Source: Amphiscolops sp. MND2022
Taxonomy: Eukaryota
Assembly: GCA_964187785.1 (NCBI GenBank)
Contig: OZ076409.1
Location: 53,632,001 to 53,696,000 of the forward strand
DNA length: 64,000 nt
Direction of reading: 5' to 3'
The notes beneath the pieces were generated by a model. It made no database searches, was not told the DNA's origin, and saw nothing but the letters and a program-made list of their open reading frames with translations. How positions within the stretch are numbered: position 1 is the first letter of the stretch; the number at the start of each line of letters is the position of its first letter. Positions 30,901 to 33,900 of this stretch are shown here, piece after piece. The translations under genes were made by a program, and so were the position numbers.

Positions 30901-33900
30901 AGAATATTTTGCTTTCGGTGAAGCAGTGAGGAGGGCGGTTTTGCTTTCAATAGAGCAGCGAGAAATCTGTAGTACTTGGCAATACAGGTGATTTGTTCAA
31001 ATTGAACTGAAAAGAGAGCAAGAATGAATTCTGCTGAAATTTGACAATTTAGTCAAGAGTAAGTGGATGATAGTCCTTTTCGTGAAAGATTGTTATAAAT
31101 ACACGTCTAAATACCGTGTCTTCCCGCTTAAGAAAAGTGTTCTGTTTGAAACAGACAAAAGTGAATAGTAGCGAGGAGTTATTTATAGACGGCAGAGTTT
31201 GACACTTAGGTCTTTACCGTCTCTTCTTGCAAGGTAATGTAGCACACGTCTAAAAACCGTGTCTTCCTGCTAAATAAAAGTGATCTCTTTGAGACCAAGA
31301 AAAAAGGAAAATAGGAGCAGGGAGTTATTTATAGACGGCAGAGTTTGACACTTAGGTCTTTACCGTCTCTTCTTGCCTGAGAAAGAGAAAGTTAAAAAAA
31401 GTTAAGTAAAGGCAAGGTTACACGTCCAAAACCCGTGTCTTCCTACCAGCAGAAAAAAGTGATCTGAATGGCCAGTTCAGAACAATGAGAAGAATAAAGG
31501 TAGGGAGTTATTTATACACGGCAGAGTTTGATGCAAACCGTCGTTTGATCTTTACCGTGTCTTTGTCAAACTTTGTGACAAAAATTGTAATATACGTCTA
31601 TACACCGTATCTTCGTTGAGCTATGCAACGGAGTTATTTATACACGGCAGAGATTGATACTGAGATCGTTACCGTGTCTTCTTGCAAGGATAAAATTGAA
31701 TACGCACGTCCAAAACCCGTGCCTTCCTGCTAGAGAAAAGTGATCTGTTTTAGATCGATGAAAAATGAGAGCAGGGAGTTATTTATACACGGCAGAGTTT
31801 GATACTGAGATCGTTACCGTGTCTTGCACCTAAAAAGAAGAAGTTGAAAAAAGTTTAATTAAACACAGTACACAGTAAATAAAAGAAATAAAAAAAGGCA
31901 GGAAACAGATTTATTTTTGCAAGCTGAGGATTTCTTTTATTTTTGTGATGTAGAATTCTTCAAAGGAGCCAAGTCCCGTTTCCATAAAAGAAGACAATTC
32001 TTCTAGGAGTGGTAGATCAAAGGGTTGTATATTCGTTTCAGGGCTATCGATGTAGACTGATAAGGCGATGGCTAATTCAGCAAAGAATTTTGTTTTCTCT
32101 TCTACTCTTATGAAGACTTTGGTTTTGGGCTTTAATACTGTATAGCCTCTAGCTGTAAGCCAAAATTGGTATCGGTATGACCACTGCAGTTCCTTCACAA
32201 TTAATAGTTCAGGGCTTTTGATGGGGTCGACTATATTATAGAGTGATACTGGAAGTTTTAGTTTAACTGTTTCAATTGCGTCTTCTTCCCAGAGGTTGTG
32301 GATGAACATTGATTTTTATTGACTTCTCCGTTTTCTATTTTGAGGGAGTTGATTTCTTGCTAATTGGGGGAGTAGTTGTGGAAGGTTGCGTCTGGTCCAA
32401 ATTTGTCTGACGATTTCTTCTTGTAGACTGAAGCTCATTCACTTTTATTTATGCTGCTGTTGTATCGGCTAACTCTCCAAGGATGTGGAGTTGAAATTGG
32501 GTGATGTGTGACTCTGGTTCTTCAGCGTAGTTATCCAAAGCCTCAGATAGTTGTTCTCGGAGAAATCTATTACTAGCGATTTCTAAAGTGGAGACTTTGC
32601 TTTTATTATTTACAGGATGTATTGTTATCAGAATGAAGCTGGGTTTGATAAAGGACCACTTGAGTTTGATGATATTGAAGTTTTCAGTGACGCCTGCTGG
32701 AGTAGTTATTTTAAACGGACAGTTGAAATTGACTTCTTCAATACATTCGTTATTAAGGTGAAAGTTCATATCTAGCTACTTTTGTCAATGTTTTCCGAAT
32801 GCATCTATGGGTTTATTGTATCAGTTAATTCTCCAAGAGCGTGAAGTTGATACTGTTCAACGTGCTGTTCTGGGTTCCGGAGGTATTCGTCTATTGCTTT
32901 ACCAAGTTGGGCTTCAAGAAGGGTATCTGGTGCTATTTCGAAGGTGGTTATTTTTGTCGCTGATGGGGTGTAAAGTCACGGAGATGAAACAAGGTGAAAT
33001 GAGTGACCATCTGAGTTTGGTAATTATGAAATCTTCAGAATTGCCTGAGGGGGTTGTTATCGTCCAGGGGCAGTTAAATTCTATTTCGTCGATTTCTCCT
33101 TCAGAGAGGAAGATTACGCTCATAGTTATATACTATTGTCAGCATTTAGGAATGCATCCGTTGGTGCGTTTCCAAAGAAGAGGAAAATGTGGTGAAAGTA
33201 GTCCCAATATATAGACGTTGGGGGAACAGTGATGACTTTCTTCTGTTTTGTTTGGTGGTGTTGGAGGGAAACGTGAAAAGTCAAATTTCGGGATTCTTGT
33301 TTAACTATTCTGTAGAAATCGTTGTTTATCTTGATGTACATTTACTGTCGGTTATTCGTCTTTTTGCGTCGTTTGGTTTTAATATTGCTGAAACACAACA
33401 AAAACATGCGCATCGTTAAAACGATCGCTTTGGAGTTAGATAGAATATTTCTTTTTGCTCAAAACAGAGGAGCTAGAGGTCAAAAAATGATTTGTGATAT
33501 TAATTGGGGAATAAGGCGCTTCATGACTAAAATGAGATTTAAAAGTGAAGTGGTAAATTACTTTTGAATACAATAAAGAGTTTTTGCGGCAAGTTAATTT
33601 ATTTGTTCTATTGAGGAGGAGCTGAAGTGGTTTGGCGGCTGAAATGAAAGCTAGTTATGGAGCTGAAAAGACAATAAATAAAAACGTGAACAAAGACATT
33701 AAATTACTTTTTATGTGAGATGAAAGAATACATGAATAAAGCAATTATTTGATAAAGTTGAGTTATTTGGCGACTGAAAACAAAAGATAGTTATGAACAA
33801 AAGTGAAGCGTGAACAAAAGTTAAATTGAAGAAAGAAGTTGATAATATAACAAAAGTTTGAACAAAGCATAACTTTACTACTTCAAGATAAAGTAAGTTG

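Follow-up and report, generated by a model that had tools for sequence, protein, structure and literature searches.

Xrn1-resistant RNAs, also termed exoribonuclease-resistant RNAs (xrRNAs), have been described from RNA viruses. The coremin class consists of a first hairpin (hp1), a conserved spacer of 8-10 nt and a second hairpin (hp2) conserved in structure only (PMC10321173, PMC10520033); in its Watson-Crick variant (xrRNA-WCC) a GAG pairs with a CUC situated one base before hp2, while classical coremin also occurs without an obvious Watson-Crick pseudoknot (PMC10321173). Repeats of coremin motifs are mentioned in a figure legend (PMC10520033), tandem xrRNAs are known in flaviviruses, and plant viruses carry intergenic xrRNAs upstream of coding open reading frames (ORFs) (PMC6299227). 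Among retroelements, Drosophila gypsy bears an envelope gene (env) that needs its own message, with a spliced subgenomic RNA and an internal ribosome entry site (IRES) (PMC4276936), and the retroelements with chuvirus glycoproteins carry an env of the Monjiviricetes fusion family (PMC7642597). Analysis of 64,000 nucleotides from Amphiscolops sp. MND2022 (assembly GCA_964187785.1, contig OZ076409.1, positions 53,632,001 to 53,696,000 of the forward strand; hereafter the window) revealed on the minus strand a long terminal repeat (LTR) element that likewise carries an env of this family, and between its small ORFs and env an array of five structured RNA units. The array is a real, undescribed family of leader RNAs, and we propose, tentatively, that its units block 5'-to-3' exoribonucleases.

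An initial annotation of the window had reported a five-copy array upstream of env; five units were located at positions 31101-31822 (Table 1), and all the stems it quoted and its invariant linker are present. Read on the element strand, hairpin 1, an A-rich linker, hairpin 2 and hairpin 3 follow one another and are repeated five times, the hairpins corresponding to the stems earlier named P3, P2 and P1. Hairpin 1 has 6-8 bp together with an inner helix of 3 bp and an internal loop that is asymmetric; the extra inner helix of unit 3 occurs in A-U (30 copies), G.U (2) and G-C (3) versions. The linker measures 8-11 nt and its 3' end reads AACUC. The loop of hairpin 2 is variable, as had been noted, with a range of 5-51 nt by the helix definition used here in place of the 7 to ~45 nt given before. 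Three purines separate hairpin 2 from hairpin 3, which has 5 bp and a loop of 9 nt with G as its first and A as its last base. Text resembling ccgtgtcttc does occur twice per unit (at most one mismatch), but the alternative pairing suggested for it is not conserved, since in units 1, 2, 4 and 5 the covariation of P1 is independent of that of P3. The inner helix, the minus strand, the avoidance of AUGs, the splice acceptors and the sister arrays described below were absent from the initial annotation.

In an alignment of 19 hand-picked units, the five of the window and 14 from diverged copies, every one of 444 cells is paired when read on the element strand, and 8 of the 24 pairs change on both sides (one in outer P3, one in the inner helix, four in P2 and two in P1). 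The covariation score was reached by none of 500 shuffles, bearing out the compensatory changes claimed for all three stems, and slid partners pair at 21-45%; the covariation comes from some 8 pair changes within a set of five paralogous units and not from many independent lineages. Since this set was hand-chosen and its members are related, all 184 units at 37 genomic places were counted too. Variant alleles per site amounted to 0.083 in the stems, 0.05 in the linker and 0.067 in the loop of hairpin 3, and to 0.25 in the internal loop of hairpin 1 and 0.421 in the other loops, so that stem variants are five times rarer than loop variants (Fisher P about 4e-15, for copies that are not independent). 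Fourteen older units held out of the model pair at 96%, a value biased toward the model to which they were aligned. Selection keeps the fold, both its stems and its linker, and the strong conservation of the linker is as expected for tertiary contacts.

The first two units match at 96-100% in all 40 scored of 184 candidate copies. Genome-wide, the linker pattern was matched 639 times and its reversed control twice; dividing the linker matches gives roughly 130 arrays. The elements of this family, here called family A, are young and abundant.

The structure had been read on the plus strand; it is real, but the functional strand is most likely the minus (element) strand, which gives the order P3, linker, P2, P1. 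This assignment follows from the G.U forms fixed between units or common to subfamilies, from a strand-specific loss of AUGs (0 ATG versus 12 CAT in the leader), from the acceptors and from the direction of transcription. In the pseudoknot of the sister family C, described below, 8 units carry G.U versus 1 with A.C on the element strand. Folding energy is not decisive (z -2.8 on the element strand and -2.3 on the plus strand, 20 shuffles each) and per-unit energies are mixed between the strands, while the 19 stem variants found among family A copies (5 Watson-Crick, 4 G.U, 6 A.C, 4 broken) are strand-neutral. An invariant C.A opposition in hairpin 2, which would be U.G on the plus strand, speaks for the plus strand.

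Analysis of the region between the last small-ORF stop and the env AUG showed no ATG, versus 9.2 in shuffled sequences, and none of 1,000 shuffles reached zero. No leader ATG at all is present at 34 of the 37 places, and alleles that create an ATG number 6 where 15.9 are expected (P about 0.004). For CAT, the control, the figures are 22 and 20.7. New AUGs in the leader are selected against. The only longer AUG-free run on the element strand is the LTR-borne 5' leader (1,415 nt), the next longest being 382 nt. With the AUG-free stretch, the selection against AUGs and the conserved host-type acceptors that flank its units, the array behaves like part of an env leader. The AATAAA at the last small-ORF stop is, from its sequence, a possible leaky poly(A) signal.

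Arrays also occur in two sister families of the same genome. Family B, whose env is about 60% identical to that of family A, carries 6-20 tandem copies of hairpin 1 and linker alone at 13 loci, between two small ORFs; the gap that holds them is AUG-free (0 versus 8.6) and ends at a TTTCAG 8 nt before an AUG, and these copies are recovered by the family A model. Family B has another two duplicated structured motifs, at L056:3382-3572 after pol and at L056:7457-7608 before env, the former with clear compensatory double changes. Family C (env 55-57% identical) has 1-3 units directly before env in 28 loci, two of which are duplicates by place. Its unit starts with a 6-bp hairpin whose loop forms 6 bp with the end of the A-rich linker that follows; a single base then leads to a variable hairpin and to a third one, the loop of which is invariant. 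Of 67 units at 26 places, all but one (66) form every pair of this H-type pseudoknot, which covaries among four Watson-Crick versions and also occurs with G.U; its diverged versions are common to two copies. In families B and C the stop codon of some small ORFs overlaps the start codon of the next. A spacer is lacking in family D, pol ending at most 150 nt from env in 7 of 9 loci and an 821-aa env frame lying directly after pol (L088-L100), which points to another route of env expression; the two family D loci searched with both the A and the C model gave no match. One structure model (R2) contained one unintended extra pair.

We hold it to be quite probable that the array serves the expression of downstream ORFs at the RNA level; this and the other likelihoods given here are our own judgement. 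As to how, the units may be tandem, redundant 5'-to-3' exoribonuclease roadblocks, Xrn1-resistant and coremin-like, that make or protect a subgenomic env RNA, a proposal that we regard as a serious possibility while giving it somewhat less than an even chance. Upstream cleavage or decapping of the long element RNA, perhaps at the AATAAA next to the last small-ORF stop, would come first. An exonuclease would then stall at hairpin 1 of a unit, the A-rich linker packing against the stem and hairpin 2 bracing the fold, and the surviving 3' RNA would be spliced at the next acceptor or translated directly into Env, with the copy number of the units tuning how much RNA survives. Of the functions first suggested, both nuclease blocking and an IRES or leader role appear to gain ground from the AUG-free leader and the family C pseudoknot.

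Comparison with coremin xrRNAs (PMC10321173, PMC10520033) indicated that family C shares the hairpin, the A-rich linker, the GAG/CUC pseudoknot between loop and linker, the single base and a hairpin 2 conserved in structure only, while its stem and linker are longer. The window units share the order of hairpin, conserved A-rich spacer (here ending in AACUC) and structure-only hairpin, and are likewise intergenic and repeated. Their linker has 8-11 nt with 0.05 variant alleles per site, and hairpin 2 follows it directly with 4 of its 8 pairs changing on both sides. They differ in having a third conserved hairpin and an LTR retroelement as host, whereas the hosts of coremin xrRNAs are RNA viruses. 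The intergenic xrRNA-D/LT of Tombusviridae and poleroviruses (PMC6299227) are likewise structured elements that precede a coding ORF and lie at the 5' end of a subgenomic RNA or close to it; they have no sequence or Rfam match to the array, are single and near the start site, and their viruses use 3' cap-independent translation elements or a genome-linked protein (VPg) for translation.

Several results weigh against a roadblock. Neither the coremin consensus nor a 4-bp hp1 with a YGAD or YGNNAD loop was matched on either strand, and hairpin 1 of the window units, with its 6-8 bp and internal loop, is larger than hp1. Pairing between the apical loop and the linker spans 3 bp in four units and a different, wobble-rich run of 5 bp in unit 3, which is no convincing pseudoknot. 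In other copies the pairing base is lost to loop variants while the linker is unaltered. As family A has the spacer and the hp2 and not the hp1 loop or the pseudoknot, we do not file it as coremin, only as likely to work like one. Family B lacks a hairpin 2 of its own, and its env leader is AUG-poor as well (1 versus 6.2) without carrying the array motif; AUG depletion in the family C leader is weak (1 versus 3.0-4.9, with 29-162 of 1,000 shuffles as low). The A and C models do not cross-match at E up to 1, the A model finding no C unit in five C loci and the C model no A unit, so that the kinship of the two is argued from layout, from the way the linker ends and from a third hairpin of the form CG-G...A-CG. 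Scanning ribosomes are stalled by coremin (PMC10520033), a poor fit with ribosomes scanning through five units, and known frameshift pseudoknots with an added hp2 failed to stop Xrn1 (PMC10321173), so that layout alone is no proof of resistance. An uncapped env RNA would moreover need its own route to translation.

The units could instead gate alternative 3' splice acceptors, hiding or exposing an AG and thereby setting the ratio of genomic to spliced env RNA, with the AUG-free stretch as the 5' untranslated region of the spliced forms. Fourteen strong acceptor-like sites were found along the 19-kb element strand, of which four lie in the array or env leader, three before small ORFs and one before the post-env ORF, and the AG is kept in 37 of 37 places at the sites before unit 5, before unit 2 and after unit 1. 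TTTCAG, the prevailing acceptor among the GT-AG introns of the neighbouring host gene, reaches a density of 1.72 per kb in the spacer versus 0.15 in gag-pol, and the start of the family C units coincides with an acceptor-like AG, which is base-paired within hairpin 1. Splicing also produces the env message of Drosophila gypsy (PMC4276936). A generic score nevertheless found no strong donor in the 2.1-kb 5' leader, AG conservation outside the units (15/26) is not clearly higher than that of other dinucleotides (217/493), the acceptor before the post-env ORF has no array, and a covarying pseudoknot exceeds what hiding an AG requires. We consider gating rather unlikely. Donor-like sites on the sense strand are reduced by half (8 versus 15.8), a modest effect. 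Such depletion is expected of any retroelement.

Selection against upstream AUGs throughout the array could also reflect a translation element, either an IRES or a tuner of scanning and reinitiation that gives ribosomes access to the env AUG on a polycistronic RNA. The overlapping stop-start codons of families B and C agree with this, as do the separate duplicated motifs in two other intercistronic gaps of family B and the two IRESs of gypsy (PMC4276936). The last unit, however, lies 283 nt away from the env AUG, and no Rfam IRES was matched in the window or in four sister loci. An IRES does not require that the whole upstream array be free of AUGs. A function of this kind appears unlikely.

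Families A and B place an AATAAA, a U-rich tract and an acceptor within about 90 nt of a stop, an order that recalls the mechanism of nematode operons. The element might be operon-like, one transcript with up to about nine ORFs undergoing leaky 3' cleavage past an ORF that exposes the RNA downstream, arrays of a new exonuclease-resistant class stopping decay, and a donor-less acceptor taking a capped spliced leader (SL) to yield a monocistronic env message. SL trans-splicing has been reported from several invertebrate phyla (PMC2481426), and a Ur element has been named for nematode operons (PMC7668243). With the intercistronic regions that contain it, families A and B have in common a poly(A)-like signal, a U-rich tract, a stem-loop and an acceptor, all in the first 100 nt or so past an upstream stop; the array units are far more structured than a Ur element. 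Such an operon is decidedly unlikely in our judgement.

The units may also be multimerised protein-binding hairpins that serve nuclear export of unspliced RNA, localisation or packaging, bound by NXF1 or, in a Rev-like manner, by the element's own small proteins, several of which have no recognised function. The constitutive transport elements (CTEs) of Mason-Pfizer monkey virus (MPMV), of murine leukaemia virus (MLV, gamma-CTE) and of NXF1 intron 10 (PMC4174252, PMC7551171) are likewise cis-acting RNAs of retroelement type with AAGACA, and tandem gamma-CTE copies are additive (PMC4174252). The hexamer occurs six times on the element strand of the window array and is kept in 35-37 of 37 places, and family B multiplies one hairpin 6-20 times. 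The CTE resemblance noted initially has nonetheless lost ground, as AAGACA is a loop motif in CTEs (PMC4174252, PMC7551171) while here it starts only 6 of 10 stems, its last letters are paired and change with the partner in 4 of 10, and families B and C are without it. Unlike the CTEs, the array lies in an AUG-purged leader, and avoidance of AUGs is not predicted by export. Family D, furthermore, replicates without such an array. We regard this explanation as improbable.

A self-cleaving ribozyme of a new class in each unit, cutting the polycistronic RNA before env, is very improbable, even though the compact covarying fold has an invariant internal loop and linker. The UAAAU that follows a helix in five of five units presumably resembles the linker of the pistol ribozyme. 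The hammerhead core is absent from the units, as first annotated, and no core of the twister, hatchet or twister-sister type is repeated from unit to unit either, so that the ribozyme option raised at the outset has receded. No Rfam ribozyme was found at gathering score or at E up to 10, the small ribozymes considered being hammerhead, HDV-like, twister, twister-sister, pistol and hatchet. Although other retroelements contain ribozymes (PMC3185411), the genomic RNA would not survive five to twenty cut sites unless cleavage were very inefficient, and family B keeps one hairpin only. Least probable of all is a role of the array at the DNA level, in which it would be an internal promoter or enhancer and its hairpins incidental, as what we take to be TATA-box matches in five of five units and TTTGAT-like (TCF-like) sites in several might suggest: internal starts would also account for AUG avoidance, but only pairing within a single strand accounts for the double changes seen in the stems and in the family C pseudoknot, the family B linker has no TATA match, and the TCF-like site is oppositely oriented in families A and C and varies among units.

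A scan against Rfam gave no match at gathering score in the window or in four sister loci, only chance matches at E 0.07-8, in keeping with the initial view of a selected cis-acting structure outside any Rfam family. Neither viral contigs nor prokaryote genomes contained an exact match to the hairpin-1 pattern, and a broader pattern of its variants gave 46 matches versus 49 for the control; 12 loci inspected were unrelated, and a few of those listed are family B copies. No env relatives were found in viral contigs. Seven metagenome loci carry env relatives at 33-69% identity; five of the seven were searched with both models and gave no match, and one (L051) has a 1-kb spacer without a repeat array. 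Four env queries (P0002, P0062, P0003 and P0020) returned only families already found. The open-access papers searched held no description of this array and no xrRNA in a retrotransposon.

The array lies in an intact LTR element of 19,249 bp (window 24965-44213, minus strand; Table 1). Judged by its sequence it is a gypsy-type (Metaviridae) element with env, as LTRs, target-site duplication, gag, the pol order reverse transcriptase (RT), RNase H and integrase, and env were all identified, and the predicted env product is a chuvirus-like fusion protein. The 4-kb spacer between pol and env holds small ORFs first and then the array. This spacer, together with an additional macrodomain and an ORF with a TRAF/MATH domain, distinguishes the element from gypsy and from the retroelements with chuvirus glycoproteins (PMC4276936, PMC7642597), and its pol order is that of gypsy.

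Table 1. Positions of the element, its genes and the structured units in the window
Feature	Positions	Strand	Remarks
5' LTR	42028..44213	-	2,186 bp, identical to 3' LTR; 4-bp target-site duplication GTAC
gag	40391..41701	-
pol	34884..40445	-	RT, RNase H, integrase (gypsy order) and TARG1/OARD1-like macrodomain
Small accessory ORF cluster	31911..33341	-	69-132 aa; mostly one paralogous family
AATAAA overlapping last small-ORF stop	31910..31915	-	kept in 35/37 places
AUG-free intercistronic leader	30818..31910	-	1,093 nt, last small-ORF stop to env AUG
Acceptor-like site before unit 5	31831..31850	-	first exon base 31830; AG in 37/37 places; putative use
Unit 5 (first on element strand)	31704..31822	-	hairpin 1 31822-31787, linker 31786-31776, hairpin 2 31775-31726, hairpin 3 31722-31704
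Unit 4	31592..31677	-	shortest; hairpin 2 loop 5 nt
Unit 3	31420..31560	-	extra inner helix within hairpin 1
Acceptor-like site before unit 2	31378..31397	-	first exon base 31377; AG in 37/37 places; putative use
Unit 2	31244..31368	-
Unit 1 (last on element strand)	31101..31222	-	283 nt before env AUG
Two TTTCAG acceptor-like sites 3' of array	31008..31040	-	first exon bases 31034 and 31007; host-type; putative use
env	28682..30817	-	711 aa; Pfam PF24664 Monjiviricetes fusion glycoprotein, E 1e-39
Two ORFs 3' of env	27209..28655	-	153-aa ORF directly past acceptor-like site (28662) and TRAF/MATH-domain ORF
3' LTR	24965..27150	-	2,186 bp

The macrodomain of pol (window 39000-39599, minus strand) lies upstream of RT and resembles TARG1/OARD1 (C6orf130), with E about 3e-24 against PDB; it is possibly an anti-ADP-ribosylation counter-defence. 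Within the small-ORF cluster, accessory paralogs of 105-155 aa are present at 2-3 per element (window 31911-33341, minus strand; L056:5347-7143; L060:4668-7102) and are 14-25% identical to each other, and the family gave neither a Pfam match above cut-off nor a PDB match. The window ORF at 33123-32914 is shorter than its counterpart in L072. A 106-aa ORF at window 34116-34436 (minus strand) begins MGCC, which we take to recall a myristoylation/palmitoylation signal. On the other side of env, the TRAF/MATH-domain ORF lies within window 27209-28363 (minus strand), and the 153-aa ORF between the two begins 6 nt past the acceptor-like site and belongs to no recognised family.

Both LTRs contain an 87-bp tandem repeat (window 43040-43557 and 26097-26494) that folds into paired short hairpins and sits in the 1,415-nt AUG-free run past a TATA-like site near 43830; it is a possible second structured array. 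The element lies just downstream of, and in the same orientation as, a host RBM26/27-like gene with CCCH and RRM domains (window 45500-49100, minus strand), whose short introns are ordinary GT-AG introns and indicate an animal-type host. A non-LTR-type RT ORF at window 50499-54125 (plus strand) and RT-like fragments at 22999-24012 (minus strand) are both unrelated to the array.

Hairpin only in family B, three hairpins in family A and a pseudoknot with hairpins in family C form a natural series of units of 50-140 nt. If the units do block exonucleases, xrRNAs would be extended to endogenous retroelements, and the expression of env and the accessory genes of a polycistronic element would be explained; if they do not, an undescribed and strongly selected leader RNA remains. 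Should the element be operon-like, it would provide the first xrRNA family and the first gene expression based on trans-splicing in a retroelement.

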